Of a stretch of 64,000 bases of DNA, positions 10,176 through 41,808 are shown in pieces. Made by a program: the position numbers and the translations under genes. How positions within the stretch are numbered: the first letter of the stretch is position 1; each line of letters starts with the position of its first letter. A model generated the notes under the pieces. The model was not told the DNA's origin and ran no database searches. It saw nothing but the letters and a program-made list of their open reading frames with translations. The stretch is from a virus (Duplodnaviria > Heunggongvirae > Uroviricota > Caudoviricetes), in the IMG/VR virus record IMGVR_UViG_3300006226_001702, positions 11,064-75,063 of that record; one strand, given 5' to 3'.

Positions 10176-12239
10176 ATGAATGTTTTATATGAAGCAAAAA
10201 TGGACGATTTCGTCACTTCTGGAATTACTAATAAGTCAATTCATAAAAAAGGTGTAGGAAGAAGCCGTTTAGTTAAAGCAATATTAAATTATCCAAACTC
10301 ATTACATATACTTTATGAGGTAGACTCTTCAGATGATGACAACGGTGCAAAACATTTCGCAGTAAATGGTCAGTCTCTATCATTTCTAAATAAAGGTTAT
10401 GCCTCACAGTTACATTTCACTGACATTCAAAATATAGTCCCGCCAAACTTTATGCAGTTACCTTACAGTCAGCAAGAACAAATCCTTCAACAAGTGTTTG
10501 ACCAAGCTGAAATGAAAGTTCAATGTGACTGCGGTTCATTCTACTGGCAGGGAATGTGGGAAAAAGACGCTGAAAAAGATAACACTTACTCTTCATTCAC
10601 TGGACAGCACGGAAAAGACATTTGGGCTGGCAGGCATAATGCAAGTGGCAATGTGCAAGGTCAACAATTATGTAAGCACTTGTGGTCAGTTGTTGAACAG
10701 ATAGAAGAAGACATCCCAGCCATTCTAAAGCTTATGGGTTCAAACACATCTTCTGCTTCTTCAACAGTTCAAGATGATGCACTCGAAGCACCTGAAAGTC
10801 CAGCTGGTGTTCCAGACGAAAGACCAAGATCAGAAGGTGGAATCAAATCAGTCAAAGCAGCCGATACAATATCTGCCGACATTAACGAGATCAAATCACG
10901 AGCTGAACAAAATGACTTGCCAACTATGGACTTATCTGCTGTTGAAAGTAAGCCTGTTGAAGGTGATGCTGATGTTGTGGAAGGTGCTGAAGATTATGAG
11001 CCACCAATTGAAGAGCCCAACAAGGCAGAAAACTTAGATGCAGATGCTACTGAAGATAAGATGTTAGAAGAGCCACTTGACACTAAAACGAAAAGTGATA
11101 TTGGTTTAGTTGAATCTTTTGAGAGGATCTATCAACAGTCATTGAGAGAAAAGAAAGACCACATCATAAACAAATTACCTCGTTTATCTAATACTGAAAA
11201 AGAAGAAGTCATCAACTTTTTTAAGAATCATTCTAACCTCGAAAACAAAATAGATTGGAATAACAAATCACTTACTATAAATGATTTTAGGCAGGTGATG
11301 AAATCTGTTGAAACTTCTCGTTCTGCTAAAAAGGCAGAAGTTAAAGCTGACTTAAGAGTTGCTTTTGATGATTATGTCAAAAATGGGGAAGCACACGTTT
11401 GGTTCGCCAATGACAAACTTATTTTAGTGTCACCATTAAGTTGGGCTTGTGCTCAATTTATGGATTCATATAACTGTTATGGTGAAGGCGCAAAATGGTG
11501 CATTGGAAAAGAAAATGACCCGCAACATTGGAATGATTATGTTTGTGAAAAAAGACAACAATTCATTATGTTATACGATGCTGTTGAAAAAACAAAGTTC
11601 ATGATTGAGCGTTCAAACGAAGAATACTATGACATTTGGGACGCGAAAGATAATCACATTTATGCTGAATCAAAAGGATTAGTTGATGCTGTTGAGCATC
11701 TTATTGGTGATAGAATAAATGAATTCCCAATACAAGAAATTGAAGCTGATGTAAATGAAGATATTGAAGAACTTTTTTATAATTGTGATTATGAAGAACA
11801 TGTAAATAACAGAGAAGAATTGGGTGAAGAATTAAATGAATATTACATAGAGGAACTTCTAAAAGGCAGAGGCGAAAGTGAATTAGAAAGTCCAATAAAC
11901 TTATTTCCAACTTTAATGTATGAAATTAGAAAAAGAGGTGAGGGAATAGCTGATGAAGATGAAAATGAATTAGCCGATGAAGTTCTAGTTAGTGTTACTA
12001 ATACAGTTATTGCAACATTTCACAATGAAGTTAGAGCAGGTAGGCCAGTTGATGATGAATGGATGGTTGACTTGTATGCTGCCGACAAAGTTGATGTTGA
12101 TGGTGAAATATCTGAAAAGGATAGAGAGACATCACGAGAAGCTTGGTACGATAAAAAACGAACACTCTTAATGGATAAAGAAAGATCTTATGGACAACAG
12201 TTCTTGTTTGAATCTATTTACAGGAAGAGCCATGAATAA
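10176..12239 (+). CDS. hypothetical protein with SWIM-type zinc finger and acidic regions
   Basis: CDCGSFYW...CKHLW (CxCxnCxH); long acidic stretches; contains SFERIYQQSLREKK motif. Confidence 0.5.
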   Translation: MNVLYEAKMDDFVTSGITNKSIHKKGVGRSRLVKAILNYPNSLHILYEVDSSDDDNGAKHFAVNGQSLSFLNKGYASQLHFTDIQNIVPPNFMQLPYSQQEQILQQVFDQAEMKVQCDCGSFYWQGMWEKDAEKDNTYSSFTGQHGKDIWAGRHNASGNVQGQQLCKHLWSVVEQIEEDIPAILKLMGSNTSSASSTVQDDALEAPESPAGVPDERPRSEGGIKSVKAADTISADINEIKSRAEQNDLPTMDLSAVESKPVEGDADVVEGAEDYEPPIEEPNKAENLDADATEDKMLEEPLDTKTKSDIGLVESFERIYQQSLREKKDHIINKLPRLSNTEKEEVINFFKNHSNLENKIDWNNKSLTINDFRQVMKSVETSRSAKKAEVKADLRVAFDDYVKNGEAHVWFANDKLILVSPLSWACAQFMDSYNCYGEGAKWCIGKENDPQHWNDYVCEKRQQFIMLYDAVEKTKFMIERSNEEYYDIWDAKDNHIYAESKGLVDAVEHLIGDRINEFPIQEIEADVNEDIEELFYNCDYEEHVNNREELGEELNEYYIEELLKGRGESELESPINLFPTLMYEIRKRGEGIADEDENELADEVLVSVTNTVIATFHNEVRAGRPVDDEWMVDLYAADKVDVDGEISEKDRETSREAWYDKKRTLLMDKERSYGQQFLFESIYRKSHE

Positions 12240-12567
12240 TAAACAAGAAGCCGCACTTAAAATAGTTAAACTATTAAATCTCTATAATAATGAAGCATCA
12301 ACTAATAATGAAAAGATGATTGCTAAATCTAAAATAGATGAGCTCTGCGTTAAGTTCCATTTTAGAATTCAAGACAGTACTATAATTGATATTGATATAG
12401 AAAAAAGAAATGCAACACAGAATCAATATGTTGCAAAAGAAGTTGACCCATATAGAACTGGTTCATATGTTATTTACAAAGGTGTTAAATACTATCAACA
12501 AAAAGGAAAAGGACCGCCTGTCCCAAGACAAATGTTTGACAAAAGATACATTGGAGTTAGAAGATGA
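12232..12567 (+). CDS. hypothetical protein
   Basis: Track ORF 12190..12567 trimmed to ATG at 12232 (MNNKQE), 8 nt upstream of the preceding gene's stop. Confidence 0.4.
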   Translation: MNNKQEAALKIVKLLNLYNNEASTNNEKMIAKSKIDELCVKFHFRIQDSTIIDIDIEKRNATQNQYVAKEVDPYRTGSYVIYKGVKYYQQKGKGPPVPRQMFDKRYIGVRR

Positions 12568-12944
12568 AAACATTTGAACAAATATACCAATTAAGAGAAG
12601 ACAAAAAACCATTCGTTGGTGATTGTAGAGATTTAGAAGTGTCAAACAATTTACCATGGGAAGATACAACTGAATGTGCTAATGACTTAGGTTATTGGGC
12701 TAGAATGGATGAATATGATGGCAGTCCAGAAGATAGTAATTACGAAAAAATAACAAAAGAAGAATTTTGGGAAGCTTGCGAAAGACATAGAAACCCACAA
12801 TTTGATTGGGAAAGAAAAGCTAAAGATTACACAGATGACTGGGATGAATACATTGACGGAGATAAAATCTATCTCAAACGATATGACGGAAACATTTATC
12901 TAATTTATGATGAAAACGAAGACGTTCATTATTTTTGGTGGTAG
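12564..12944 (+). CDS. hypothetical protein (N-terminal MKTFEQIY motif)
   Basis: 126-aa ORF, ATGA-coupled to upstream gene. Confidence 0.5.
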   Translation: MKTFEQIYQLREDKKPFVGDCRDLEVSNNLPWEDTTECANDLGYWARMDEYDGSPEDSNYEKITKEEFWEACERHRNPQFDWERKAKDYTDDWDEYIDGDKIYLKRYDGNIYLIYDENEDVHYFWW

Positions 12945-12946
12945 TA

Positions 12947-14329
12947 ATGAAGTTATTTGAAGAAATCTACACTGGATATCGTGGAATGTCAGGTGGTAGT
13001 GATGAAGGCAAAAACTTCTGGGAGCCAGGAGAATTTGATAAGCTCACTTCAAAAAAATCAGTGGGAAAATGGTACTCATCAGACCCAGAAGTTGCTGAGT
13101 GGTACGGTGATGGGAAAGTTATTAAGAACACATTAGAATTTGACGACCCAATGATTGTTGATGCTGAAGGTTCTGACTATCACAACATACAAATTGATGG
13201 AAAAAGATACAATTCAGATAAACTATCTTTAATGGCTCATGAAGATGGCCATGATGGATTAGTTATAGAAAATGTTAAGGACCCAAAAATAGTTGCTGAT
13301 ACTTATGTTGCATTAAAACCTAACACAATTAAAGAGTCAAAATTATTTGAACAGATATATAGAAGCAGCAAATTGTACTATCACATCTCTCCAAATAAGT
13401 TTGACAAATTTGAAAGACGAAACTCTTTTAGAAAAGGAGATGGTGCTGAAGAGTTAGGTGGGACATTTTTAACTCCACAGCTTTATATGATTAATGCTTA
13501 TTTCGCTAATTATCTTTCAACTAAACATAAGAGAAAAGAATATTATCTATACTACTGCAAATTGAAAAAAGACTTAAACATCTTTAATCCATCATCTAAG
13601 AAAGATAGAACATTATTGATTGATAAAATTAGAGAAAATCCAAATCAGTTTTTCTTGAATTATTCTATTAAACAACCACGAGCTGTTCTTCCAGATTTGA
13701 AAAGAGAGTTAGCCTCAATGTTTCGCTCACATAATTGGTCTCAAATAGAAAATCCAGAACTTACTAAAATGATTAAGAGCCTTGGATTTGATGGCTATGT
13801 TTCTCAAGAAAATGAAGTGGGAAATATCATGGTGTTTGACCCAACTAATATTGAAATAGTTAGAAGCAAATCAATGAAAGCAGAAGACTTAAAAGATAGT
13901 TGGTCAGAAAAAGCTTTTTCTAAAGATGAGTACGAACAAATAAATGATAGATACAAATGGAAAGACGAAAAAGAAAATAGATGGGACTCAGTTGATGATA
14001 ATGAGTTCAACGACTTAAAATATACGACATCAGATATTTATGAGATAACTACAGACACTGACTTAGAACCATTCGATCTACTTTCTATGGTCGACAATGA
14101 TGGTAAAATAATCACTAACAAAATGAGAGACGTTTTAGACCCAGCGATTCATTATGCTAAAAAGTTTTTCTTTGACGGAAAAGAATTTGATAGCGTTAAC
14201 GAATTAGAAAAACATCTTGTCAAAACTTTTGGAAAAAGTGATAAGGAGTGGGGCGAAGTTTTCTCTGGAATGCTTGGCGAAGATGATGAAGACGAGCATG
14301 ACGCTGGTGATGGTGACTTAATCTTTTAA
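12947..14329 (+). CDS. hypothetical protein (two copies of LFE(E/Q)IY motif)
   Basis: Track ORF 12935..14329; start placed at MKLFEEIY to match the N-terminal motif pattern seen in paralogous contexts; internal second copy SKLFEQIYRSS. Confidence 0.5.
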   Translation: MKLFEEIYTGYRGMSGGSDEGKNFWEPGEFDKLTSKKSVGKWYSSDPEVAEWYGDGKVIKNTLEFDDPMIVDAEGSDYHNIQIDGKRYNSDKLSLMAHEDGHDGLVIENVKDPKIVADTYVALKPNTIKESKLFEQIYRSSKLYYHISPNKFDKFERRNSFRKGDGAEELGGTFLTPQLYMINAYFANYLSTKHKRKEYYLYYCKLKKDLNIFNPSSKKDRTLLIDKIRENPNQFFLNYSIKQPRAVLPDLKRELASMFRSHNWSQIENPELTKMIKSLGFDGYVSQENEVGNIMVFDPTNIEIVRSKSMKAEDLKDSWSEKAFSKDEYEQINDRYKWKDEKENRWDSVDDNEFNDLKYTTSDIYEITTDTDLEPFDLLSMVDNDGKIITNKMRDVLDPAIHYAKKFFFDGKEFDSVNELEKHLVKTFGKSDKEWGEVFSGMLGEDDEDEHDAGDGDLIF

Positions 14330-14332
14330 ACC

Positions 14333-27116: not shown

Positions 27117-27539
27117 TTAATTTCCAATTTCATCTAATATGTGCTTGAACTCTTTTTCTAAATGCTGTTCCATATAACGATAATATCTCAATGAAGGTGT
27201 TTTAGTTCTTGAAGAAACACCACTTCCATTTCCTGCGCCATATCCAGTTTCAGTTTGAAGATACCATTGCTGTTTCTGTGAAACTCCATGTCCTTGGTCA
27301 TAACCACCAGTGTAATAAGCCCAATTATTTATGACTCTTTTTCCACCAGGACCTTCAAATACTAAATCAAAGCCATGGCCTGGTCTTTCGTCTTTATTTC
27401 GTCGGCAGTATGCTTTAACACCACGGGCTAATTTAACGCCATCATTTTTAACAGCATCTGGATTTGGTGGGTGCCTCATACATTTTGGCATCCCGGCTTC
27501 ATTTAATTTGTAAATATCTTCAAAGGATTTTATTCTCAT
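27117..27539 (-). CDS. hypothetical protein (N-terminal IKSFEDIY motif)
   Basis: 140-aa ORF, Gly-rich. Confidence 0.45.
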   Translation of the reverse strand: MRIKSFEDIYKLNEAGMPKCMRHPPNPDAVKNDGVKLARGVKAYCRRNKDERPGHGFDLVFEGPGGKRVINNWAYYTGGYDQGHGVSQKQQWYLQTETGYGAGNGSGVSSRTKTPSLRYYRYMEQHLEKEFKHILDEIGN

Positions 27540-28117
27540 TTTCTAGTCCTAAATTTTCCTAATGATGTTGTTTCTAATATTTCACATTGAACACTATCCA
27601 TTCTTTTTCCATATATGCTAACAATATCACCAACTTGAGCTCTTGCAATTTTTGACATTATTTCTTTAGTGGATTCTTGAAAACCTTCATAATCGTCATC
27701 ATCACCAAAAAGGTCACCCTCTTTAATGAGATTAGCAAAATCTAAAATGTTACCAGTAAACTCATAATCATCATCACCTAATTCTATCCAGTCGCCTTCA
27801 CGATACATTAAACTTGGTGGTAATAAACAATTTGGGTCCATAACTCTAATTCTTGCTTCAACATCTCTCATTCTTTGAGGTTTAGATTCTCTTAATGATT
27901 TCTGATAAACTTTTTCAAAGTCCATAGATTCTCCTAAATAGTCTTCACCAAACATTTCTCTACCTTTTGATACACCAGCTTTGAGATACTGTAAAACTCC
28001 AATAAGCTTCATTATATCATCATCAGATAAATCTGGGTCATCTAAAGCATTTTCAATTACATCAAGAGCATCATTTGAATCTTTTGCTAATTTGATATAC
28101 TCTTCTACTGATTTCAT
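27536..28117 (-). CDS. hypothetical acidic protein (MDFEKVYQKSLRE motif)
   Basis: 193-aa ORF, ATGA-coupled. Confidence 0.45.
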   Translation of the reverse strand: MKSVEEYIKLAKDSNDALDVIENALDDPDLSDDDIMKLIGVLQYLKAGVSKGREMFGEDYLGESMDFEKVYQKSLRESKPQRMRDVEARIRVMDPNCLLPPSLMYREGDWIELGDDDYEFTGNILDFANLIKEGDLFGDDDDYEGFQESTKEIMSKIARAQVGDIVSIYGKRMDSVQCEILETTSLGKFRTRK

Positions 28118-29487
28118 TATTTGTTAGCCTTATAGTCATCACATCTACATGGGTCATGTCCACAATCTTCACAATCTTTTCCAGTTGGCTTTTTAGCTTT
28201 TTTCTCTTTTTTGCCAGCTTTGTAATATTCTTCATATTCCTTACATCTACAAGGACTGTGTCCACAATTATCACATTCTTTACTTTCAGTAAGAGGTGCA
28301 GTTGCTACTTGATTGGCTGCCTGATTTGCAACTTTCGCTGCTTTTTTAGCTTCCTTAGCAGCTTCTTTTGCATTTTTTTCTGCAATTAAAGCAAATAATT
28401 TATCGCATGCTTCTTGCCTAGCAACTGGGTCTTTAATTAAACAGAATTGATGAGCTATTCCTTCGTAATCAATATTCTTACGAGGACCGCCTTCTCTTAA
28501 ACTATCATTATATATCTCATTAAAGTTTATGCTTTCATTATATTTTTGCTCATTATCAAAATTAGCTGCATATGTACATTTAATATTTGCACCTGGTCTA
28601 CCACCAATGTATCTTAAAGCTTTTTGTATTTTGTCTTTATTATCTGGGTCTTTTATGTTGCCTGCAAATTCTGGGCCTCTTGTGCTTCCATCAACAAAAA
28701 CTTGGAAAGTGTTTGCTCGCTTAACAGATGCCTTTTTCGGTATAATGTCTTCTTTTAATTGATTTTGATTTATGATTTTTTCTAAGAGTTTATCTTGTTT
28801 TTCAGTAAGTTTACCAACAATTTTTGCGCTGTCTTCACCCTCGCCTGTTGCCTTTGCAAGAAGTCCCAATGCTTTTGAAACTGATGCATCATCAACTGGA
28901 CTAAATGGTGCTGTTAAGTCTCTACCACCAGCCTTTGCTTTGAAAATTCCAAATTCATGAAGTTGTCTCTCACCTAATGGAGTTAAACCTTCTTCAGCAG
29001 CAGCTGCATCCATTTCTGACCAGTCTTCTTCGTCATCATCGTAATATTCAAATTCGGCTTCGTCATCTTCATCATCCCATTCAAAATCACCATCATGACC
29101 ACCAGTTGCAAAATACTCTTCTTCGTCTTCATCAGTTGGGTAATCTCCACCCATTTCATCGAAGTCATCATCGTCATCAAATGGGCCAATTCCTACACCA
29201 TTCTGTCTATCATCGTAAATTTCTGGATATAAGTCAGCATCAGATTCTTCATCATCTTCGTCATCACCATAACCACGATAAGACTGCTCACTCTCATAAG
29301 CTGCTCTTTGGTCTGGGTTCATCCATCCTATATCGCTTGCGTCATAAGACATTTCATCATCATCTTCAAATAATTCAGGTGCATCAAATTCTTTTGCTGC
29401 GGAAGGAACGTCATAAGTTTCTAACTCATCTTCGAAGGTCATATCGTCAAGGGCAGGATCCCAATCTTCTTTTAAAGGTTTCATCAT
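28117..29487 (-). CDS. highly acidic protein with two C-terminal CxxCGHxPCRC repeats
   Basis: N-terminal 170 aa very rich in D/E/Y; C-terminus CDNCGHSPCRC ... CEDCGHDPCRC. Confidence 0.5.
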   Translation of the reverse strand: MMKPLKEDWDPALDDMTFEDELETYDVPSAAKEFDAPELFEDDDEMSYDASDIGWMNPDQRAAYESEQSYRGYGDDEDDEESDADLYPEIYDDRQNGVGIGPFDDDDDFDEMGGDYPTDEDEEEYFATGGHDGDFEWDDEDDEAEFEYYDDDEEDWSEMDAAAAEEGLTPLGERQLHEFGIFKAKAGGRDLTAPFSPVDDASVSKALGLLAKATGEGEDSAKIVGKLTEKQDKLLEKIINQNQLKEDIIPKKASVKRANTFQVFVDGSTRGPEFAGNIKDPDNKDKIQKALRYIGGRPGANIKCTYAANFDNEQKYNESINFNEIYNDSLREGGPRKNIDYEGIAHQFCLIKDPVARQEACDKLFALIAEKNAKEAAKEAKKAAKVANQAANQVATAPLTESKECDNCGHSPCRCKEYEEYYKAGKKEKKAKKPTGKDCEDCGHDPCRCDDYKANK

Positions 29488-30912: not shown

Positions 30913-31419
30913 TTAGTTGTACTCCACTCTAATATGTGAGTCTGGGCTATAAAGCCAGTTTCTCAAAGTTTCAGCACTCTCAAAGATTTCCTTACCAAGA
31001 TTTTCTGCTGAATTATGACCGAAGAAACTATCAACATAAACACACATTGGGTCCATATAAGCATATTGTGTGCTTCCGTTATCCCATCTAAAGTTGATCT
31101 TGACATCATCAAATTCTTCAAAATCTTCCAGTAAAGTTTCTTCTAACAATGAAGTGTAATGAAAGTTTGACATATCAGAACCCTCAGGTCCTTCCTTCAT
31201 GTAACACAACATTGCAGCGGCATTCAATCTTTCTTCAAATGAGTTGTACTTTTCTTGAGTGCTATCAAATTCATAATTTCCGCCAAAAGTTTGGGGAATC
31301 ATTAGCGTATCATTTCTCATATAAGCACGATGTATCACTGGCTGTTTCCATTCTTCTTTTCCAATTATGAGAAAAGAGCTTGATGATGAATTACTGACAA
31401 ATCCATTTCTAATTTTCAT
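30913..31419 (-). CDS. MKIRxGFVSNSSSSSF-family protein (member 3)
   Basis: MKIRNGFVSNSSSSSFLIIG; body shares PxTFGG..F....Y..F..RLN segment with member at 49750..50478. Confidence 0.6.
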   Translation of the reverse strand: MKIRNGFVSNSSSSSFLIIGKEEWKQPVIHRAYMRNDTLMIPQTFGGNYEFDSTQEKYNSFEERLNAAAMLCYMKEGPEGSDMSNFHYTSLLEETLLEDFEEFDDVKINFRWDNGSTQYAYMDPMCVYVDSFFGHNSAENLGKEIFESAETLRNWLYSPDSHIRVEYN

Positions 31420-32916: not shown

Positions 32917-33067
32917 TTAATTCCAACCATTCATCATCAGAAAATAAAAGTTCCTCTCTTCTTTCTTCTTTTCTTTTAGCATCATATCTCCTGGCAGCCT
33001 CAAAAAGAGCCTGCCATTCAGGAGTTGTTTTGTCAATTTCAAACATCAGTCGCCATTTTTTATGCAC
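32879..33067 (-). CDS. hypothetical protein
   Basis: 62-aa ORF. Confidence 0.3.
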   Translation of the reverse strand: MHKKWRLMFEIDKTTPEWQALFEAARRYDAKRKEERREELLFSDDEWLELNGTRLATQTVRE

Positions 33068-34356
33068 TTAAACACTGGGAAGCGAAGAGACTTAACACCA
33101 GCTGCATTTTGACTTTCCTCGAAATAAACTATTTCAGCAACTCTTCCTTTGAGATTGTTTCTGTTTTTCCAGAACTCATCTCTCTGTGCATCTGAAAAGC
33201 CGCTTCCGCATTTTACGATATTCCCTTTGTAACCAAGTTCAAAAGCTCCGAGGCGACCTTTGTGTCTGCCACGACCTTCTTGAAAACCAAGGATTTGCAA
33301 ATCAATATCAAAAAAGCTCTTCACTTTTGCACAAGCTATAGTGCGGTCCCATTCATAAAAACCATCCATGTCTTTTACGATGACGCCTTCCTTTTCGTTT
33401 TCCTTTGCCCACTCGAGGCCTTTTTCAATTTGACCAACATCATCACCGATGTAAAGACAAGGAAGGGGAAACAAGTAATCATATTTTGCAACACCGGGAC
33501 TTGAAGTTAAAGTTGCCTGGTATGCAGAATAACGCTCGCTGTATGTCATTGTGCATTTGCGATTTTCCCACTGCTTGAGCGGCATGTAATCATAAACGGC
33601 GAGACATACTTCCTTCGAACCACCTTTGCGAGTTGAATTGGAAACAAGTTTGTACTGCTGTTTGGAATCCATCTCCATAAAACCCACCGGCATCCTTTCA
33701 CCATCGAGCACAACATCTTGACCTTTATAAGCCTCAAGCACATCCTGTTCGATAAGCGGGAAGTTTCCAGTTTGGTCTTTTCCAGAGCGGGACAACACAG
33801 TAATTTTGTTTCCCTTTTTGAATATCGTCATTCGGAATCCGTCAAGCTTAACTTGATAACCGAACTTAGTTCCAACATAATAGTCGGGATTGGAAAAATA
33901 GTCAGCACAGAGCATCACTTCATGAATTGGAATAAAGTCATCACCAAAAACAGCGTTACAAGTTGTGCGGCCAATTCCCAGGCCCTTATCCCATGATTTT
34001 GAAGCAATGCGAAGAATTCCAATTTCAGTCTGTTCATCATATTGAGAAGCAAAGGCTTGGATAACTGCGGCATCAATATCACGCCCAGTGTTATTTTCAT
34101 TGAGGTACTCTAACATATCAATGAGGCCCCAATCTGCCCAGTCAATTGAATCAATGGCAGCAAGCTTAATCTGCTTTTGGAGCTTTCGTTCTTTGAGACC
34201 AGTTACTATGAGATTATCAAAATACCATTGAAGAGTGTGAATGAAAGCGCCGTCATCCTTGTACTTTCTGAGGACATCTTTCTTCGCATTCGTTCCTTGT
34301 GTGTTCTGAATTTCATAGAACATATCAATAACTTTTGAAGTGTGCTTATTTCCCAT
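33046..34356 (-). CDS. ATP-dependent DNA ligase
   Basis: Nucleotidyltransferase motif I KxDGxR: YQVKLDGFRMTIF. Confidence 0.75.
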   Translation of the reverse strand: MGNKHTSKVIDMFYEIQNTQGTNAKKDVLRKYKDDGAFIHTLQWYFDNLIVTGLKERKLQKQIKLAAIDSIDWADWGLIDMLEYLNENNTGRDIDAAVIQAFASQYDEQTEIGILRIASKSWDKGLGIGRTTCNAVFGDDFIPIHEVMLCADYFSNPDYYVGTKFGYQVKLDGFRMTIFKKGNKITVLSRSGKDQTGNFPLIEQDVLEAYKGQDVVLDGERMPVGFMEMDSKQQYKLVSNSTRKGGSKEVCLAVYDYMPLKQWENRKCTMTYSERYSAYQATLTSSPGVAKYDYLFPLPCLYIGDDVGQIEKGLEWAKENEKEGVIVKDMDGFYEWDRTIACAKVKSFFDIDLQILGFQEGRGRHKGRLGAFELGYKGNIVKCGSGFSDAQRDEFWKNRNNLKGRVAEIVYFEESQNAAGVKSLRFPVFKCIKNGD

Positions 34357-35174: not shown

Positions 35175-35786
35175 CTATGAAAGAAAAGCGGGTGGTCGAG
35201 CTAACTTTTCTAATAAGTTATTGTCTCGATCAAATTTTAAGTGTATGTATTTTCTGCTTGCTAAATAGTCTGCTAAATGTAACATTTGTTCATCGAATTC
35301 TTGTGGTGTGGGAGTATTACCTGATTTGTCTCTTGCTGCGTCCCATCTTCCCATGTGGCTTGCGCATAATCTTGCTTCTTCAGATAGACCAACTTCATCT
35401 AATTTGTCGGCTATATCTTTGGCATGATGTTTTGATGTATATTCACTTTCATCAGTTGCATATTTGTAAGCATCATGAGCAATTGCTGCAATTACGAGTG
35501 AGTCTTGATTTAGTTGTGGGAATGCATCACATATCGTCATTACGAATTTGACTACAGCTTTAGTGTGTCGTGATAGACCAAAATCTCCTTGTGAGTATTC
35601 TGGGTGGTATTTTCCAGTAGAAGAAGCTTGACCTGCAATATTTTTATATGCAGCTGTTCTCAAAACGTTCTCTAATTTTGCTCTTTTTTCTTTTGATTGA
35701 ATTAAGTCTAATTCTTTCATGTAAATTTTAACATTTGGTGACTCAAGCATGAGTGCTTCTTCATAGATTCTCTGGAACGTTTTCAT
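35175..35786 (-). CDS. HD-domain phosphohydrolase (paralog A)
   Basis: SSTGKYHPEY...LSRHTKAV...AAIAHDAYKY (H, HD, D metal ligands); N-terminal MKTFQRIY. Confidence 0.65.
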   Translation of the reverse strand: MKTFQRIYEEALMLESPNVKIYMKELDLIQSKEKRAKLENVLRTAAYKNIAGQASSTGKYHPEYSQGDFGLSRHTKAVVKFVMTICDAFPQLNQDSLVIAAIAHDAYKYATDESEYTSKHHAKDIADKLDEVGLSEEARLCASHMGRWDAARDKSGNTPTPQEFDEQMLHLADYLASRKYIHLKFDRDNNLLEKLARPPAFLS

Positions 35787-35813: not shown

Positions 35814-38800
35814 ATGAACTTTTTAAATGAGCTCGTTTCACTATCTAGAGATGAAATGGTCGATGAATATAATAAGACTAATAGAGATCCCATAGAAAAT
35901 GTTAAATTTGATAAAAGGGCAGCAAGTAGTTTTTCAGCCTCAAGAAAAGCTACTAGACATAAAATAACGGATAAACTCTTTCCAGATGGTTTTAATGAGT
36001 TTGATTTGCATAGTGCAGGAATTGCTATTCAAAGATTGATGAACACTGGGGAATTTGACCCAGATTACGATATAAAAGATGATATTGAAAAACTAACTGG
36101 CGCAGATAGAGACTTAATTAAAGCAGTTTTAGTCAAATCACAATATCATATTGATAAAGAAAACGTTAAGGGAAGTGTTGAACGAAATTATCCACATCTT
36201 GACATATCACAATTTGATGATATTTACGAAGTCTTTACTGATATAATTGGCCCAAACCATGGTGATACATCTTTATATGGAATTGAAGCCGAAATTGAAT
36301 TGTTGACTTGCATTGCTTTAAGAAAGATGGGATATCATACATCAAATGTTTATGACAACTTTTATTCAGAAGCTAGTGAGGCTCAAATTAAGGAGACTTT
36401 AATTAAAGTGGCTAAAGCATATTATCAAAGCAAACAGCATAAATTAGAAGAAAGTTTCAAACTTAGAATTCAGAACTTGAGGGAAGGTAAAACTTCCACA
36501 ATGCATTTAGAAGATTCAATAATTCGTGGTCCAGCGACTATGAATAAAATGATTGAATTTTTTAATTATCTCTATGGATTATTAGAAGGAACTTATACTG
36601 GAGATAATCCACCAATTTCACAAAAGATTGATGGTGGTCCAGTTATCTTTATGTGGTCGTCATTCCCAGGTCTTCCAGGCCCAGGATGTGCGGGCAAAGG
36701 ACTCCTTAATAAGACTCCAGTTCATTACACAACTCATGAACAAATAGATGCTGATGACAAACCACAAGGTTATAAAGACAAATTACATTACGTTTTGAAA
36801 TTAGCACAAGCTGTTAAAATCCCAGCAAATCAAGTTTGGATGGGCGACATGCTCTTCTCAAAAGGTGACGCCAAAACTTATGAGCAAGACGGTGAGAAAT
36901 TCGTTTATGTTAAGCCTGTAACTATTGCGTATGCAGCTCCATTTGATTCAGATATTGGTAAGAAGTTTTTGAATTGTGAAGTTGGAGCTGTTTTTCATAC
37001 GAGATTTAGAGATAACTTAACTAACAAGACTAATGATATTTCAATTTCAGAATTGGGAGATATTCCAGATTGGGCATTCGTTAAAGATGCTCAAATAAAT
37101 AACTTAAGTGGTAAGGTATCATTCAATAAGCAAGAATCCGCTTTCGTAAAACGTGAGATTGATAAACTTAAAAAGCTTGTAAACGAGCTAAACAATAATG
37201 AAGCATATCATGAGTTAACTAAAAATCAGAAGTTTATTGACTCATACGTTACAACATTACAGAATAATAAGATTGATAGACAAAGTAAAATTGACCCAAA
37301 TGAATTCGTAAATGAATTAGTGAGTTGGATTGGCACTAAAATGGATAATAATAGATCCAAATTGGATAGCCTCAAAACAGAAGCAGGCCGAATTAAAAAG
37401 GCAGCCTCATTAGATACGACTCAAAAAGAGTTAAATTATCTCGTAACTAACAATAAAGATGTAATTCAAAAAATAGCAACTTGTCTCAAACTTGCAACTG
37501 ACATTAAAGAGTACATGGTTGAAAAGATAAACGAAGCAGATGAATGGATATCTCAAATAGAAACTAAAGACGGTTTTTCTAAAACTGGTGGGGAAGGTTT
37601 TATCGCATCAGATGTTGATGGTGATTTCGTTAAGCTTGTAGACAGAGCAGCATTCACTTATTTTGCTCGCTCACCTGACATCATCAAAGGCGGGGCACAT
37701 TCAGCTTCTCGTGAAAACACTGAGAAGAAAACTGCGGTAGTAAACTTTGGCAGACTTAATCCTGTTTCAATTGGCCACAGAAAAATGGCAGAAGCAATTA
37801 GAGCTAAAGCAGATGAACTTGGTGGTGAAGCATTCATCTATCTTTCTCATTCATATGATGGTGTTGACTCTAAGAAGTTCAAGAAAGGAACAACTAAGAA
37901 TCCGCTCAAGTATGAAGACAAGATAACTTTCGTACAGGATGCTATTGGTGATATTGTAACAGTTGTAAATAGCAAAGCAGACCAAGCATTTGCTGTTTAT
38001 GGTGAACTCTATCGAAAAGGATTTACTGACCTCGTTATAATTGCTGGTGAAGATAGAATTGAAGTCTTTGAAAGAGATGCTCAGAACCACAATGGAAAGT
38101 ATGATGCTGAACCAATGAGATGTTTTGATTTTGATAGCATTAAAGCGGTGAATGCTGGTGTTAGAGATGAAGATAGTGATGATGAAGCTGAGCAGGCAAG
38201 TGCATCATTGTTACGTAGAGCTGTTAGTGATAATGATTTTGAAACTTTTGAGAAGTTTGTTGGTGCAAAGTCATATGCTCAAGAAATGTTTGATCTTCTT
38301 AAGTATGAGATGGGTTTATCTGAAAAATTAAAAGAAAATGAAGAACTAACAATAGATGAACTCATAAATAGATTAGACAATGAAGATAATAATATTGAAA
38401 TAGAAATCGATGTGAATCCTGATCCAAATGAAGAAACAAATTTTAATATAATAGAAGAACCTGAAAATAAAAATGAAGTAAATGATTCTACTGAAAATAG
38501 AGAAAGTTCTCCAGAGGAAATTAGTAGTGAAATAAATTCAGCAATTGATTCCTATATGAATGAATCAATAAATATTTTTAATAAAATATTTTATAAAAGT
38601 TTAAAAGAAGAGACAAAAAGAGGAAAAACTTATACAGTAAAAGGTAAAGAAAATATAAAGAAAGTTTTATTTAATATAAAGAAAAGACACAAAGATTTAA
38701 CTTTTTATAATGCAAAGCATCTTGGTGGCGGTAAGTGGGAAATAAAAACATCATATGCTAAGAGTAGATCAAACTTAAGTAATCGTGAGATTGAATGGAA

Positions 38801-40409
38801 TGATTTTGATATTGAGGAAGAAGCTATTTCTGAAAAACAAATAAAAGGAAGCTTATTAAATAAAATAGCTTTATATTTAGAAAATAAAATAAATTATAAA
38901 GACACACCCGAGAAAGAATATATAAGATTTAGTTTTAAAATTAGCCCAAAAGGTTCAGGACAATTAAAAATCGGATTTAATTTTAAAGGAAGTGGTAATA
39001 AAGCTTTAATTGGAAATAGAATAAATAAAGATAAAATAAAAGATCTAATTGATGAAATTAATATCTCACAAGATAACGAAAAAGTTATTTGTACTGGTAA
39101 TATAACAAATTTTATTGTTTATCAAAAAGGTGATACTCAAATTGATTTTAAATATCATCCATCAGACCAAGCTATAAATGAATCAGGGGCTTCAAAAATA
39201 GTAAATGAAACTGATATTCAAGAAGCTTTATTTGCTTATATTTTAAGTAGATATAATGAAGTAAGAAGTGGTAAATTGAATATTGAAAATATTTTAAATT
39301 TTAATAATTTTGATAATATTTTAATAGATCATTTTAATTCTGAAGAAGAATTTAATAATTTCTTTGCACCAAAATCAACAACTGGTAAAGAATTTAGTCA
39401 ATATGGTACTGACGGTAAAAATTGGGTGTTCTTTTTCAATACATTAATTAATGAAATAAAAAGTGATGAATTTTTGAATAAAATAAAAGATTGCTATAAT
39501 AATAAAATAAAAAATCAAATAGATTTAAATCAATATAAAGTTTATCATCCTAATTTAAAAAACTCTGAAAATCAAAAACATGATTTTTTAATTAGACAAT
39601 TTGGTGCTACTCAAGGATCATTTTTTAAAGATACTATTAATCCAACAGATGTAATTTTGTATAAAGATTTAAAAGAATTTGATTTATTATATAAAAGTTT
39701 TGATAATGTCGATGAATATAAAAAAAATTGGAATAAACATATAGAAAATTTAAATATTATAGGATTATCATTAAAGAAAAATACGAAAAGTAATTTAAAA
39801 ATATATAGAACAAATCCTGAACCAATAGGCACGAGTAAAGCATTTGATGAGAAAAGATTAGTTTGTTTTAGATTTAATAATGAAAATCCAGAGGTTTGTA
39901 CAGTAAAAATAAATGAAAAAACTATAAATAAAAATTATAGTTTGATGAGAAATAAAAATGATATTCCTACAGGAATTATGATTGAAATACCTGTTGATGA
40001 AAAACATATTCATATGAATGCAATAGGCTTAACATTTAGAAGTTCTTTAGGAAATGACAAATTAAAACCTGGTATTAAAGTAGGTCTTGATTTTAGACAA
40101 AAAGGTGGTAGTCCTGAGGCACAATTAGGAAGAGCTTCTGATTCTTTAGAATATCTATTTAAAAATAATAGAAAAGCTTATGATGAGTGTTCTACACTAA
40201 TATCAGTAGATGATAATGGTTGGAATAATATTAAAAATAATTTTATAAAAAATTTATCATTATTAGGAGATAAAAATTTAAAATTAAACATCACAAAACT
40301 TTTAGCTTTTGGATGTAAATATGCAATTTTATTTGTTGATAGCAATGGAAATATAGATAAAAATAGACCAAGTGAATCACTTGCTGTTGATTATATAAAA
40401 ATATCATAA
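35814..40409 (+). CDS. giant multidomain protein: Rnl1-like RNA ligase domain + HxGH nucleotidyltransferase domain + Asn/Lys/Ile-rich low-complexity C-terminal half
   Basis: Motif I KIDGG; motif IV/V EGFIASDVDGDFVKLVDR (cf. T4 Rnl1 EGYVAVMKDGSHFKIKSDW); GRLNPVSIGH = (T/H)xGH adenylyl/cytidylyltransferase signature; sharp composition shift near 38330. Confidence 0.5.
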   Translation: MNFLNELVSLSRDEMVDEYNKTNRDPIENVKFDKRAASSFSASRKATRHKITDKLFPDGFNEFDLHSAGIAIQRLMNTGEFDPDYDIKDDIEKLTGADRDLIKAVLVKSQYHIDKENVKGSVERNYPHLDISQFDDIYEVFTDIIGPNHGDTSLYGIEAEIELLTCIALRKMGYHTSNVYDNFYSEASEAQIKETLIKVAKAYYQSKQHKLEESFKLRIQNLREGKTSTMHLEDSIIRGPATMNKMIEFFNYLYGLLEGTYTGDNPPISQKIDGGPVIFMWSSFPGLPGPGCAGKGLLNKTPVHYTTHEQIDADDKPQGYKDKLHYVLKLAQAVKIPANQVWMGDMLFSKGDAKTYEQDGEKFVYVKPVTIAYAAPFDSDIGKKFLNCEVGAVFHTRFRDNLTNKTNDISISELGDIPDWAFVKDAQINNLSGKVSFNKQESAFVKREIDKLKKLVNELNNNEAYHELTKNQKFIDSYVTTLQNNKIDRQSKIDPNEFVNELVSWIGTKMDNNRSKLDSLKTEAGRIKKAASLDTTQKELNYLVTNNKDVIQKIATCLKLATDIKEYMVEKINEADEWISQIETKDGFSKTGGEGFIASDVDGDFVKLVDRAAFTYFARSPDIIKGGAHSASRENTEKKTAVVNFGRLNPVSIGHRKMAEAIRAKADELGGEAFIYLSHSYDGVDSKKFKKGTTKNPLKYEDKITFVQDAIGDIVTVVNSKADQAFAVYGELYRKGFTDLVIIAGEDRIEVFERDAQNHNGKYDAEPMRCFDFDSIKAVNAGVRDEDSDDEAEQASASLLRRAVSDNDFETFEKFVGAKSYAQEMFDLLKYEMGLSEKLKENEELTIDELINRLDNEDNNIEIEIDVNPDPNEETNFNIIEEPENKNEVNDSTENRESSPEEISSEINSAIDSYMNESINIFNKIFYKSLKEETKRGKTYTVKGKENIKKVLFNIKKRHKDLTFYNAKHLGGGKWEIKTSYAKSRSNLSNREIEWNDFDIEEEAISEKQIKGSLLNKIALYLENKINYKDTPEKEYIRFSFKISPKGSGQLKIGFNFKGSGNKALIGNRINKDKIKDLIDEINISQDNEKVICTGNITNFIVYQKGDTQIDFKYHPSDQAINESGASKIVNETDIQEALFAYILSRYNEVRSGKLNIENILNFNNFDNILIDHFNSEEEFNNFFAPKSTTGKEFSQYGTDGKNWVFFFNTLINEIKSDEFLNKIKDCYNNKIKNQIDLNQYKVYHPNLKNSENQKHDFLIRQFGATQGSFFKDTINPTDVILYKDLKEFDLLYKSFDNVDEYKKNWNKHIENLNIIGLSLKKNTKSNLKIYRTNPEPIGTSKAFDEKRLVCFRFNNENPEVCTVKINEKTINKNYSLMRNKNDIPTGIMIEIPVDEKHIHMNAIGLTFRSSLGNDKLKPGIKVGLDFRQKGGSPEAQLGRASDSLEYLFKNNRKAYDECSTLISVDDNGWNNIKNNFIKNLSLLGDKNLKLNITKLLAFGCKYAILFVDSNGNIDKNRPSESLAVDYIKIS

Positions 40410-40419
40410 AGGAAATATA

Positions 40420-41106
40420 ATGAATAAATTAAAAGAAGGATATCCAATTTTTCCAAAAAATTCATCTATAGGTGGTTGGGATAAATATGAAAAAGAAACT
40501 ATTTATGACCCAATAAGAAAAAAAGTTAGTTGGATAATAGATAAACTTGATTACACTGGAGATGAGAGTGACCTTAGGAAATTACTTCATAAATATTTCT
40601 TGCCTCAAAGTAGAAAATCTTCAATATGGGATGAAAGACTAGCTGAATTTGACCTCACAAGAGAAGATGTGAGCAAAGTTAATTATGATTATAGTGTTTG
40701 GCAAGCTAAACAAAAAGATAAAATAGAGGAAAGCAACATGAATAAATTATTTGAAGAAGTTTATAAAAAATCACTAAAAGAAGAAATAGAAATATGCGAT
40801 AGTTGTGGTGACCCAACCTCTGATAATTATAGTCAAGATGAAGGAAAGGTTCTTTGTCATGATTGTGCTGTTGAAGAAGATTATGAAAATGACCCAGGTT
40901 GGATTAGTTGTGAATTATGCGGACAAGATTTTGATTCAACTGAAGAAGGTGAAGAATGCGGTCATATACCAGATTCTAAATATTGGCTTTGTGATGAATG
41001 TTACAATGATGAAGATAATTGGTGCCCAGAATGCAATGGTATTATAGGCCTCGAAGTTGAGAATGAAGATGGGGAATGTTCAGGCTGTGGTTGCCCATTA
41101 GAATAA
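40420..41106 (+). CDS. Cys-rich multi-zinc-finger protein
   Basis: C-terminal CDSCG...CHDCA...CELCG...CGH...CDECY...CPECNG...CSGCGC; internal MNKLFEEVYKKSLKEE motif. Confidence 0.5.
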   Translation: MNKLKEGYPIFPKNSSIGGWDKYEKETIYDPIRKKVSWIIDKLDYTGDESDLRKLLHKYFLPQSRKSSIWDERLAEFDLTREDVSKVNYDYSVWQAKQKDKIEESNMNKLFEEVYKKSLKEEIEICDSCGDPTSDNYSQDEGKVLCHDCAVEEDYENDPGWISCELCGQDFDSTEEGEECGHIPDSKYWLCDECYNDEDNWCPECNGIIGLEVENEDGECSGCGCPLE

Positions 41107-41107
41107 A

Positions 41108-41272
41108 ATGAAATCATTTGATGAGATTTATATAATAAACAAAATAGAAGACGATTATAAAGCAGGTGAGATATCAAAAGAAGAAGCTATTAAAAGCCTC
41201 AGAAAAATTTGGGGACAATTAGGTTATTCTGTTGATAATGAAAATACTGAAATATATTTAGATGCTCTTTAA
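41108..41272 (+). CDS. small protein starting MKSFDEIY
   Basis: 54-aa ORF below track cutoff; N-terminus carries the recurrent motif. Confidence 0.3.
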   Translation: MKSFDEIYIINKIEDDYKAGEISKEEAIKSLRKIWGQLGYSVDNENTEIYLDAL

Positions 41273-41808
41273 TCAATATAATGAAAATAGTATCTAGGTT
41301 TTCCTTCATGTGGGACTTCAACTCGAATCATAACAGTATGATTTTCCCCATCTAATTCCACATCACTAGAGAAAGTTACATACTTCTCTATATCAGGTTT
41401 TTTGAATTGTTTGTAATTTGGTTTCTGATACTCAAAATCCATATCACCAATTATGTCATCAAGTTCTACAACTATAGATAGGACATCATACCAATAATTT
41501 TCGTCATCAGCACGAGATTTGAACACATTAGCGGCCCCCTTATCACCACCTCTCATTGCTTCAGCAATAGAAAAGAAAAGCTCTTTGAATCCTCGCTCAG
41601 TTATTTTAATATCACGACCTTCTTTAGTTTTGAAAGTTCTATCGAGAAAATTACGCTTAAAATAGTTTTGGGCAAACTTATACACATCTCTAACAGGCTT
41701 TTTGTAATCACCTTCGCCTTCTAAAGATTTAGCATACACTCTTTCAAATAGGCTATTCACGTGATTTGAAGTAATCCTTAATGTCGCTAATTTCTCTTTG
41801 AACTCCAA
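41269..41808 (-). CDS. hypothetical protein
   Basis: 179-aa ORF; contains SLFERVYAKSLEGE. Confidence 0.45.
   Translation of the reverse strand: MEFKEKLATLRITSNHVNSLFERVYAKSLEGEGDYKKPVRDVYKFAQNYFKRNFLDRTFKTKEGRDIKITERGFKELFFSIAEAMRGGDKGAANVFKSRADDENYWYDVLSIVVELDDIIGDMDFEYQKPNYKQFKKPDIEKYVTFSSDVELDGENHTVMIRVEVPHEGKPRYYFHYID

Follow-up and report, generated by a model that had tools for sequence, protein, structure and literature searches.

The portal gene and a recurrent leader peptide

The stretch of DNA analysed here (64,000 nucleotides, the window) comes from a jumbo phage, at least 234 kb in size, which encodes a family A DNA polymerase and is not a relative of T4. Its portal protein is T4-like: the portal gene has more than 500 homologues, many of them from contigs of 200-375 kb, PF07230 (Portal_T4) was matched above cut-off in a relative (P0091) that is 54% identical to the window portal, and the 12 best Foldseek matches of the AF2 model were all T4 gp20. 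A block of leader-bearing genes (10176-14329) lies directly downstream of the portal gene. The head module (prohead protease, scaffold and major capsid protein) lies outside the window and all flanks examined; judging from the portal alone, the prohead protease would be of the T4-like type.

A leader peptide of 12-15 residues with the consensus MK-x-F-E-x-I-Y-x-K-S-L-K/R-E was found on about 12 otherwise unrelated proteins. Written as h-F-[EDNQ]-x-[IV]-Y(-x-K-S-L-[KR]-E), the motif has 13 clear copies and one weak copy, which are spread from 11.1 to 42.9 kb over 11-12 ORFs. The features are as follows.

7924..10152, + strand: portal protein, T4 gp20 type (from homologues, the PF07230 match in a relative, and Foldseek)
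11109..11150, + strand: internal copy VESFERIYQQSLRE, ORF 10176-12239 (687 aa), between an acidic linker and the 'KKDH' domain
12198..12239, + strand: C-terminal copy QFLFESIYRKSHE, extreme C-terminus of ORF 10176-12239, followed by the stop codon
12564..12599, + strand: N-terminal leader MKTFEQIYQLRE, ORF 12564-12944 (126 aa)
12947..12991, + strand: N-terminal leader MKLFEEIYTGYRGMS, ORF 12947-14329 (460 aa), before an ART-PolyVal domain (aa 29-130)
13337..13372, + strand: internal copy SKLFEQIYRSSK, ORF 12947-14329, directly before a second, ART-like domain
27498..27539, - strand: N-terminal leader MRIKSFEDIYKLNE, ORF 27117-27539 (140 aa)
27887..27925, - strand: internal copy MDFEKVYQKSLRE, ORF 27536-28117 (193 aa)
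28492..28539, - strand: internal copy NESINFNEIYNDSLRE, ORF 28117-29487 (456 aa)
35742..35786, - strand: N-terminal leader MKTFQRIYEEALMLE, HD-domain protein, ORF 35175-35786
38556..38609, + strand: internal copy MNESINIFNKIFYKSLKE, 1531-aa ORF 35814-40409, junction of acidic linker and basic C-terminal module
40738..40782, + strand: internal copy MNKLFEEVYKKSLKE, ORF 40420-41106 (228 aa), junction to the Cys-rich half
41108..41149, + strand: N-terminal leader MKSFDEIYIINKIE, small ORF 41108-41272 (54 aa)
41713..41760, - strand: copy (V)NSLFERVYAKSLEGE, ORF 41269-41808, before an LPD3 domain (aa 43-174)
42880..42924, + strand: weak, doubtful copy MWWFYRIYTKSHLHY, ORF 42586-42972, containing WWFYRIYTKSH

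All eleven copies listed in the initial annotation were found in the ORFs named there. These occupy 10 ORFs, because 12947-14329 holds two, and the count of at least 11 proteins given there holds once the copy in ORF 28117-29487, absent from that list, is added. The C-terminal copy of ORF 10176-12239 and the doubtful copy are likewise additions to the list. The doubtful copy had an HMM score of 6.3, against at least 12 for the others, and its ORF gave a weak PHROG match to HNH endonuclease families.

The motif is conserved as a peptide

The enrichment of the motif was determined with 2000 per-protein shuffles of 95 crude genes. F[ED].[IV]Y was observed 11 times against 0.72 expected (shuffle maximum 7), the motif core followed by ..SL five times against 0.01, and SL[KR]E seven times against 0.92. 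The genome is AT-rich (30-40% GC), as would suit a motif arising by chance from K/E/F/I/Y-rich composition or from translation of a repeated DNA element (a promoter or a recombination site, for example); however, the observed counts were reached in 0 of the 2000 shuffles, a control set beforehand, and every extended copy, on either strand, is in frame with a crude ORF call. Moreover, synonymous positions are free to vary among the copies (ATC/ATA/ATT, TAT/TAC, TCA/AGT/TCT, TTG/TTA/CTA), so that the motif is conserved as a peptide and not as a DNA repeat. Shuffles and codon comparison together refute such an origin, which we regard as extremely improbable.

When the segments before and after the motif were compared all-against-all by blastp, no match below E = 0.1 was obtained; the flanks are thus unrelated and the module is portable, as had been claimed for a unit of 8-14 residues. 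In eight of the 13 copies an [LIVM]xE ends 5-10 residues past the Phe and accompanies the leader onto unrelated cargos, and a clean aliphatic-x-Glu site is absent from the other five.

Leaders and domain junctions in the window

In ORF 10176-12239, a cut is predicted at SLRE/KKDH (a slash marks a predicted cut). The stop codon after its C-terminal copy overlaps the start (ATG) of the gene that follows (12232-12567), and a C-terminal copy is also present in a relative (L016, ..IFNDIYSSRKI and stop). For the leader of ORF 12564-12944 a cut is predicted after LRE, and this leader recurs before other domains in relatives (MKTFEEIYQLRE/NKDH in P0132, MKTFKQIYQLSE/ in P0005). No clean [LI]xE follows MKLFEEIYTGYRGMS in ORF 12947-14329, the N-terminal leader of which is kept in two relatives (P0002 and L015). 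The second domain of this protein begins at LYYHIS (aa 143) in the alignment, and in the AF2 model the fold likewise starts from residue 143, with the internal motif in a low-confidence linker. Foldseek matched this domain to the ART fold and to the cyanophage A4 pre-ejectosome protein 9k3a_B, while its ART-PolyVal match was weak.

Between 27 and 43 kb, a cut is predicted after LNE in the leader of ORF 27117-27539, and NESINFNEIYNDSLRE divides ORF 28117-29487 into a very acidic N-terminal part and a basic, Cys-rich C-terminal part. For the HD-domain protein, alignment with its homologues (SPO1-like and Clostridium phages) begins no earlier than about residue 19-22, and its leader is therefore an add-on. 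The C-terminal module of the 1531-aa ORF is basic and of very low GC. Its copy had been placed exactly at the composition break, which actually precedes the motif (at 38577) by 200-300 nt: GC drops from 0.38 to 0.23 at about 38250-38400, where the acidic linker begins. The copy in ORF 41269-41808 had been taken as internal but is probably the true N-terminus, because a GTG start lies four codons before the F. The carriers at 27117-29487 and 35175 sit on the - strand amid replication genes, with no structural module there; the ip genes of T4 are said to be scattered as well.

Leaders in relatives and at the KKDH domain

Comparison of the leader-bearing genes with relatives was restricted to the 10-14 kb block. 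Related jumbo phages, with portals 61-82% identical, carry the leader as MKTFDNILEE, MKILTFDQILQE/, MHLFEQIYRT or MSKLFEKVLRE, with 18 matches against 3.8 expected; the first 8 residues account for nine of these, where 0.14 would be expected. The motif is thus kept in relatives with a strong N-terminal bias, as the suggested positional preference implied.

The domain behind the internal copy of ORF 10176-12239 ("KKDHIINK...IDWNN") had 566 representatives in an exhaustive search. It starts 3-25 residues from the N-terminus (mostly 9-16) in 66 of 83 located cases; the N-terminal position of this domain in most relatives upholds the suggestion of former independent starts. In most of them a lineage-specific leader ending in L-x-E comes before it, for example MKSFKEYLLE/KKDH among T4-like phages and, among relatives of the window's phage, MKTFEEIYQLRE/NKDH, so that the motif is collinear with T4-like phage leaders at the same domain boundary. 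Among 65 N-terminal leaders of this domain, P1 was Glu in 60, and P3 was Leu in 53, Phe in five, Ile in three and Val in one; the ten-residue class reads M-K-S/T-F-x-E-Y-L-x-E. In five IMG/VR phages, three of which have T4-like neck or tail genes at the locus, the domain directly follows a Glu-ended leader of about 10 aa (MKSYKELLIE/KKDH, MKSWIKYI[SA]E/KKDH, MRIQFSELLE/KKDH), and the same phage-specific leader is common to adjacent non-homologous ORFs: MKSYKKYLTE/ and MKYFNQFLIE/ on neighbouring ORFs of L007, and M.I.FS.L[LF]E on five ORFs of L005. Judged by sequence, these leaders are built like the T4 capsid targeting sequence (CTS), MKTYQEFIAE, although the L-x-E at this junction could be part of the domain instead of a cleavage site.

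The modules behind internal copies appear in relatives as separate genes with N-terminal leaders. This would suit internal copies that, instead of being cleavage sites, mark places where translation starts internally or where genes were fused very recently, the downstream module being also made separately with an ordinary N-terminal leader. A Met directly precedes three internal copies (MDFEKVY, MNKLFEEVY and MNESINIF), which bears out the earlier remark on Met-preceded copies, and AGGAG or GAGGA lies 6-8 nt upstream in two of them (AGGAG at 6 nt in ORF 27536-28117, GAGGA in ORF 40420-41106); in L016 as in the window, the C-terminal copy directly adjoins the following gene, whose start overlaps. 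However, neither a Met nor an alternative start lies near three of the internal copies, and K/E-rich coding sequence yields purine-rich stretches anyway. We consider this account decidedly unlikely, and it would complement the leader explanation, not exclude it.

Modules have also been visibly exchanged at the leader: P0004 has another N-terminal module in place of the ART domain, the leader and the KKDH domain of L011 are separated by a ParB-like insert, and the C-terminal module of the 1531-aa ORF differs in GC and is far more diverged from relative P0009, which retains ..NLVESFHLQE/K at the matching junction, than the N-terminal part. The copies might accordingly be inert scars, left over from former gene starts or recombination joints and functionless today. 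Such linkers would be expected to drift, whereas the residues are kept though the codons differ, in relatives with portals only 61-82% identical and, at the KKDH junction, in hundreds of clusters. Functionless scars are therefore very unlikely in our judgement.

A putative capsid targeting leader

We favour, as the probable explanation, that the motif serves as a capsid targeting leader (propeptide) of the T4 type with a prohead-protease site, present also at internal fusion junctions. In T4, residues 4 and 7 of the CTS are needed for targeting and 8 and 10 for processing (PMC9026906), a single cleavage takes place beside the CTS (PMC8442874), Alt is trimmed at its C-terminus too (PMC9026906), and the proteases of T4, phiKZ and SPN3US all cleave after Glu (PMC5694885). 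The hydrophobic/aromatic face of F-x-x-[IV]-Y would be the counterpart of Tyr4 and Phe7/Ile8 of MKTYQEFIAE, and the leader would dock its carrier to the scaffolding core during prohead assembly on the gp20-like portal. The maturation protease would then cleave after the Glu of [L/I]-x-E (..QLRE/, ..KLNE/, ..KSL[KR]E/), and the cargo would remain in the head and be ejected together with the DNA into the host. Cargo would include the ART-fold ADP-ribosyltransferase-like protein, the HD phosphohydrolase, the LPD3 protein, a nucleotidyltransferase fusion protein and small Cys-rich proteins. Two cargo modules would be joined at internal copies, which would be either cut, making the ORF a small polyprotein, or placed ahead of internal starts; the leader would also serve as an evolutionary joint for fusing, splitting and exchanging modules.

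Docking, cleavage, packaging and ejection of the carriers are what we infer from several lines: the enrichment, peptide-level conservation and unrelated flanks; the collinearity at the KKDH junction with its P1 Glu and P3 Leu, and L-x-E on unrelated cargos; the N-terminal bias in relatives, the gp20-type portal, and the HD-protein leader outside the homologous part. The ART-PolyVal and LPD3 cargo also belongs to a class for which packaging and injection are predicted, polyvalent proteins with these domains being predicted to be delivered with DNA (PMC5512222), and the ART-like domain is similar to a cyanophage pre-ejectosome protein of solved structure. Counted against the leader are the five of 13 copies without a clean site, the carriers among replication genes and the mostly acidic predicted mature products.

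The same points, with the one C-terminal copy and no protease seen in the window and flanks examined, would fit a docking motif for a non-capsid partner (a chaperone, replisome hub, phage-compartment import system or host target), in which the Glu-ended tail is part of a binding helix and no cleavage site. However, T4-like phages bear the exact T4 CTS grammar at the same domain boundary (PMC9026906), the cargo domains are of the injected-effector type, and the main leader-gene block comes after the portal gene; we find a non-capsid partner unlikely. The initial annotation had offered a protease site, a docking peptide or a fusion scar, and the comparative data point to a combination of all three: a T4-type leader docking the protein in the prohead, a predicted protease site at its end, and a module joint. 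As a tag that would load proteins into the virus head and then be cut off, the leader may mark the proteins that this phage injects into its host.

Comparison with known systems

The closest likeness is to the CTS of T4 IPI/IPII/IPIII and Alt (Mullaney and Black 1996, as reviewed in PMC9026906, PMC8442874 and PMC5694885), which was not named in the initial annotation. In both, one short leader is common to otherwise unrelated proteins of one phage, with an M-K-S/T start, an aromatic at 4, a hydrophobic pair three later and an aliphatic-x-Glu end (MKTYQEFIAE in T4, MKTFEQIYQLRE in the window). Both phages have a gp20-type portal, and the cargos are host-directed effectors, the Alt ADP-ribosyltransferase in T4 and putatively the ART-PolyVal carrier here. 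The window leader is longer than the 10 residues of T4, often with an extra K-S-L-[KR]-E tail, and unlike the CTS it is found also at junctions between domains inside proteins and, in one case, at a C-terminus; its carriers are mostly acidic, whereas the T4 internal proteins are basic. The CTS was defined experimentally, the window leader by sequence, in an uncultivated phage.

phiKZ, 201phi2-1 and SPN3US are likewise jumbo phages with many predicted head-internal or ejected proteins, and their gp175/gp245-type prohead proteases cleave after Glu, as predicted for the window (PMC5694885). The conserved N-terminal propeptide sequences of the SPN3US paralogues gp53 and gp54 can be likened to the window leader, and the internal and multiple cleavage sites of giant-phage propeptides to the predicted sites here (PMC5694885). 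In contrast, phiKZ-type proteases prefer Ala/Ser/Gly at P3, which is Leu in the window as in T4, and giant-phage propeptides mostly have 100-275 residues against the short, portable leader here (PMC5694885).

Encapsulin cargo-loading peptides, short tags that steer unrelated cargo into an HK97-fold shell, are an analogy only: they usually sit at the C-terminus, attach to the shell protein itself and stay on, and have no sequence relationship to the window leader.

Polyvalent proteins (Iyer, Burroughs, Anand, de Souza and Aravind 2017, PMC5512222) share ART-PolyVal and LPD3 domains with the window carriers and join effector modules in one polypeptide predicted to enter the host with DNA; the ParB-like module inserted in a relative of the window phage is a further likeness. 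Unlike them, the window domains occur mostly in solo or 2-3 module proteins, and no zincin-type processing peptidase domain was found here. A short shared leader at module boundaries, absent from the part of that description consulted, is a feature of the window.

Occurrence and constraint of the leader motif

To follow up the recurrent peptide h-F-[EDNQ]-x-[IV]-Y(-x-K-S-L-[KR]-E), hereafter the leader, a six-frame scan of the window was combined with translations of its ORFs. Every copy listed in the initial annotation was recovered, and three were added, namely an internal copy in ORF 28117-29487, a copy at the extreme C-terminus of ORF 10176-12239 and a weak copy in ORF 42586-42972. Altogether 13 clear copies in 11 ORFs were counted over the range 11.1-41.8 kb, six of them N-terminal, with the GTG start of ORF 41269-41808 included. 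Phe was invariant (13/13) and was residue 4 in the N-terminal copies (MKTF.., MKLF.., MKSF..); it was followed by Glu, Asp, Asn or Gln at +1, by Ile or Val at +3 (13/13) and by Tyr at +4 (12/13), and Ser at +7, Leu at +8 and Glu at +10 were frequent. The flanks of the window (10 kb upstream, 9 kb downstream) yielded no additional copy in a scan with an HMM of the motif.

The frequency of the motif was then compared with 2000 per-protein shuffles, in which F[ED].[IV]Y was expected 0.72 times and observed 11 times, and the core plus ..SL was expected 0.01 times and observed five times; none of the shuffles attained the observed counts. Among 154 ORFs from five loci of related phages, a relaxed expression gave 18 matches against 3.8 expected, and nine of these, against an expectation of 0.14, lay in the first eight residues, so that the proposed positional bias was found in relatives as well. 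An origin of the motif by composition or chance was thus excluded by the shuffles in the window and in the relatives' loci. Synonymous codons differed among the DNA of the copies, which excluded a DNA repeat and points to selection on the peptide; a rival reading takes the copies for inert scars. The segments before and after the motif showed no mutual similarity, in agreement with the earlier view that it is not a domain family, and the domain-family explanation was rejected. The statement that one copy lies exactly at the composition break of the 1531-aa ORF (35814-40409) had to be corrected, since the GC drop began 200-300 nt upstream, at an acidic linker.

The leader precedes one domain family in many phages

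ORF 10176-12239 (687 aa) was used as query against IMG/VR, and five loci were matched, each from about residue 315-323 onwards, which is exactly where the internal motif copy lies (window junction SFERIYQQSLRE/KKDH, in which the slash marks the predicted cut after Glu). The matched region, the KKDH domain, had the pattern KKDH[IL]I.K...ENKIDWNN...GKWC[IV]AY at the five loci and was N-terminal there, behind a leader of about ten residues ending in Glu: MKIKFTSLLE/, MRIQFSELLE/, MKSWIKYI[SA]E/ (three tandem paralogues), MKSYKELLIE/ and ..MLNLMIE/. At three of the five loci, genes of T4-like type for the neck, head completion or sheath stabilisation were present. Non-homologous neighbours at locus L007 shared one leader type (MKSYKELLIE/KKDH, MKSYKKYLTE/SDY, MKYFNQFLIE/NYK), and M.I.FS.L[LF]E stood at the start of five ORFs of locus L005, some of which (..VVAYHRT..GFYAT..) were putatively ART-like on reading by eye.

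The KKDH domain was searched exhaustively with HMMER in 1.84 billion representatives, which gave 566 matches; tblastn against INPHARED gave none. The first helix of the domain could be placed in 83 of the best 150 of these 566 matches; it started 3-25 residues from the N-terminus in 66 of the 83 and more than 60 residues into the protein in 11. The residue preceding the domain (P1) was Glu in 60 of 65 N-terminal leaders, and the third-last residue (P3) was Leu in 53 and Leu, Ile, Val or Phe in 62; the consensus of the ten-residue class was M-K-S/T-F-x-E-Y-L-x-E. Leaders of the window type were also found before this domain, both as MKTFEEIYQLRE/NKDH and internally as ..LFEEIYKLRE/KKDH and ..NFKEIYQLRE/KKDH. 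An ending [LIVM]-x-E was located 5-10 residues past Phe in 8 of the 13 window copies. This L-x-E tail occurred with the leader on unrelated window cargos (..SLRE/S, ..SLRE/G, ..SLKE/E, ..QLRE/D, ..KLNE/A), which argues that it is part of the leader and not of the KKDH domain.

Module exchange at the leader

The homologous protein P0145 carried a tandem double leader, MKTFEEIYLLE-SLLSFEDIYQLRE/KKDH, which fits leader duplication as a possible route to gene fission or fusion. In homologues of the 460-aa ART protein (ORF 12947-14329), the conserved domain started directly after the second motif copy, and relatives had it directly behind an N-terminal leader, for example MKTFKQIYQLSE/QIYDKKKIYYHIS; in P0004 the first ART domain was swapped for a different N-terminal module. 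A ParB-like module lay between the leader and ..HLQE/KKDH in locus L011. A homologue of the 1531-aa ORF was 65% identical upstream of the leader and about 28% downstream, with the junction ..ESFHLQE/K. Fusion, fission and exchange at the leader are evident from such cases. According to another reading the internal copies are internal translation starts; the C-terminal copy adjoins the overlapping start of the next gene, in locus L016 as well as in the window.

It was also observed that the 687-aa gene has a divided orthologue in L011 (4220-7843), a relative of 329 kb (JGI 3300010167 Ga0123353_10000003): an opposite-strand ORF (4695-5276, 193 aa), putatively endonuclease-like, splits it into ORFs of 161 and 832 aa, and the split point lies inside a CxC...CxH zinc-finger-like region. 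In the window, the conserved N-terminal domain of this gene (10176-10775), directly 3' of the portal gene, has a SWIM-like C-x-C...C-x-H pattern with no family match, and it keeps its position after the portal in all relatives examined (L011, L015, L016).

Proteins that carry the leader

ORF 12947-14329 contained ART-PolyVal (PF18760; 34.4 bits, cut-off 31.2). Its second domain had an ART fold in an AlphaFold model beginning at residue 143, just past the motif; the best structural match was the cyanophage A4 pre-ejectosome protein 9k3a_B (E = 2e-4; PMC12002296), followed by MbcT and PARP catalytic domains. LPD3 (PF18798; 42.9 bits, cut-off 27) was found in ORF 41269-41808. In the HD protein (ORF 35175-35786) the leader lay outside the region common to SPO1-like and Clostridium phage homologues. 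No relatives were found in IMG/VR for the ART protein, ORF 27536 and the 1531-aa-ORF alignment, nor in JGI metagenomes for ORF 40420 or for the 1531-aa ORF's N-terminal part.

No significant Pfam match was obtained for the first 630 residues of the 1531-aa ORF (35814-37700); they show a K-I-D-G-G motif and ligase-type nucleotidyltransferase-like features, and are followed by an H-x-G-H cytidylyltransferase-like domain. The C-terminal module (38350-40400) has a GC content of 0.19-0.27 against 0.35-0.40 upstream. Two ENA assembly contigs end inside this stretch, at about 39685 and 40286; the assembly was thus broken by it.

Genome context and portal

PHROG and Pfam scans of the window identified a family A DNA polymerase (19718-21802), an ATP-dependent DNA ligase (33046-34356), an exonuclease, tail-like proteins and the cytidylyltransferase-like segment of the 1531-aa ORF. 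Three tRNA genes were present:

2477-2549, minus strand, tRNA Gly-TCC
54994-55067, minus strand, tRNA Gln-TTG
55721-55794, minus strand, tRNA Pro-TGG

Genes identical to those of the window were found on two contigs (k141_647176, 183 kb, and k141_1331966, 50.7 kb) of one ENA metagenome (ERZ27257348), and the genome is therefore at least about 234 kb, that of a jumbo phage. With 25 kb of the window as query, INPHARED gave no near-identity DNA match, and the DNA polymerase was only about 25% identical to known ones; by these comparisons the phage has no close relative among cultivated or sequenced isolates.

Over 500 homologues of the portal ORF (7924-10152) were found, and the contigs of many of them measured 200-375 kb; a homologue of 54% identity passed the cut-off of PF07230 (Portal_T4). 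The portal family profile had no match among PDB sequences, and T4 gp20 was identified by fold comparison only: the best 12 Foldseek matches of the AlphaFold model (35 homologues, pLDDT 59.8, moderate confidence) were all gp20. Four loci of related phages were compared:

Identity of portal proteins of related phages to that of the window
L015, 82%
L011, 77%
L016, 73%
L017, 61%

Near the relatives' portal genes, for example, the leaders MKTFDNILEE, MKSFEKILEA, MLRTFEEILKE/, MKILTFDQILQE/ and MIKTFNEILQE/ were found, together with MHLFEQIYRT, MNLFERIYRS and MSKLFEKVLRE.

At least seven small ORFs of the window, all on the minus strand, begin with another recurrent module, MKIR[NSH]GFVSNSSSSSF, and an eighth ORF probably does so too:

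24662-25036, MKIR module ORF
30402-30761, MKIR module ORF
30913-31419, MKIR module ORF
49750-50478, MKIR module ORF
51569-51952, MKIR module ORF
51952-52359, MKIR module ORF
52365-52652, MKIR module ORF
51148-51567, probable further MKIR module ORF

They match phrog_7397 only over residues 1-18/37, and past residue 18 only two pairs stay similar; the module also occurs in relatives (e.g. L016 4609-6014). Separately, positions 3844-5925 (minus strand) encode a full methyl-accepting chemotaxis protein (dCache-HAMP-MCPsignal), and relatives have a hybrid sensor kinase (dCache-HisKA-HATPase-REC) or a solute-binding protein at comparable places (L011 7887-10004; L015 16290-17078). Sensory proteins of the chemotaxis-receptor or sensor-kinase kind are rare in phage genomes.

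Interpretation of the leader

We consider it fairly probable that the motif combines a targeting leader of the T4 type and a protease site, and that it is used in this way at N-termini and at fusion junctions. Several points stand against this. No protease, scaffold or capsid protein was seen in the sequence reached, that is, in the flanks past both window ends (L002, L009) or around the relatives' portal genes (L011, L015-L018; PHROG and Pfam scans). Five of the 13 copies are without a clean protease site, several carriers are located among replication genes, and the predicted mature products are mostly acidic, with no clear pattern of net charge. As a rival to the targeting leader, the motif may dock to a partner other than the capsid.

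A bolder proposal, which we regard as rather doubtful, is that the leader serves as a position-independent loading tag (N-terminal, C-terminal or internal). Combined with cuts at [L/I]-x-E, such a tag would make capsid-delivered polyproteins out of fused genes, and it would also act as a recombination joint that shuffles effector modules. One domain family is preceded by the same grammar in hundreds of protein clusters, which come from many lineages of phages; on this proposal, the ejected-effector repertoire of uncultivated phages could therefore be read from sequence alone.

If the targeting-leader reading is correct, the tag would list the proteins that an uncultivated jumbo-phage clade packs into its heads and injects before gene expression starts, as first-strike tools against host defences, and it could provide a compact, lineage-matched means to load foreign proteins into capsids of non-model phages. 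For a single cargo domain, 566 representative clusters were found, which suggests that targeting in the style of T4 is common among metagenomic phages. The main value of the motif would be this handle on the injected proteins of uncultivated phages. The tag would also join two fields so far kept apart, the capsid targeting sequence (CTS) of T4 and "polyvalent" effector domains.

Comparison with known systems

The proteases of T4, phiKZ and SPN3US all cleave after Glu, and propeptides of the phiKZ/SPN3US type have Ala, Ser or Gly at P3, Glu at P1 and mostly more than 100 residues (PMC5694885). The motif does not fit this type, as Leu occupied P3 both in the window copies and in 53 of the 65 related leaders, and as the leaders here have 5-25 residues.

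ART-PolyVal and LPD3, both present in window carriers, belong to the polyvalent protein set with predicted delivery alongside the invading DNA, whose members join 2-15 biochemically disparate domains in one polypeptide and release them by their own zincin-like MPTase peptidase (Iyer et al. 2017; PMC5512222). The 687-aa, 460-aa and 1531-aa ORFs have two to three modules each, and the other carriers are single-module. The window carriers differ in having no processing peptidase domain of their own, as no peptidase family was found in any of them by Pfam at E up to 0.01-0.5.

The internal proteins of T4 carry the leader MKTYQEFIAE with one cleavage adjoining it (PMC8442874). Mutagenesis of the CTS of IPIII assigned targeting to residues 4 and 7 and processing to residues 8 and 10, and Asp at position 10 blocked cleavage but kept targeting; T4 Alt is trimmed at the C-terminus too, and in other T-even phages CTS-like sequences are followed by different cargo (PMC9026906). 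The window leader differs from the CTS in being longer, with a K-S-L-[KR]-E tail, in standing also at internal and C-terminal positions, in a cargo that includes polyvalent-type domains, and in belonging to a jumbo phage whose polymerase is of family A. Both are short peptides common to otherwise unrelated proteins of one phage and often N-terminal, and both phages have a gp20-like portal. In the window motif, position 4 is aromatic and position 7 hydrophobic or aromatic, and its consensus MKTFEQIYQLRE shares the M-K-T start, the aromatic residue 4, the hydrophobic pair three later and the aliphatic-x-Glu end, the last of which is clear in 8 of the 13 copies. On the sequence-level criteria other than this end, the putative leader matches the T4 CTS.
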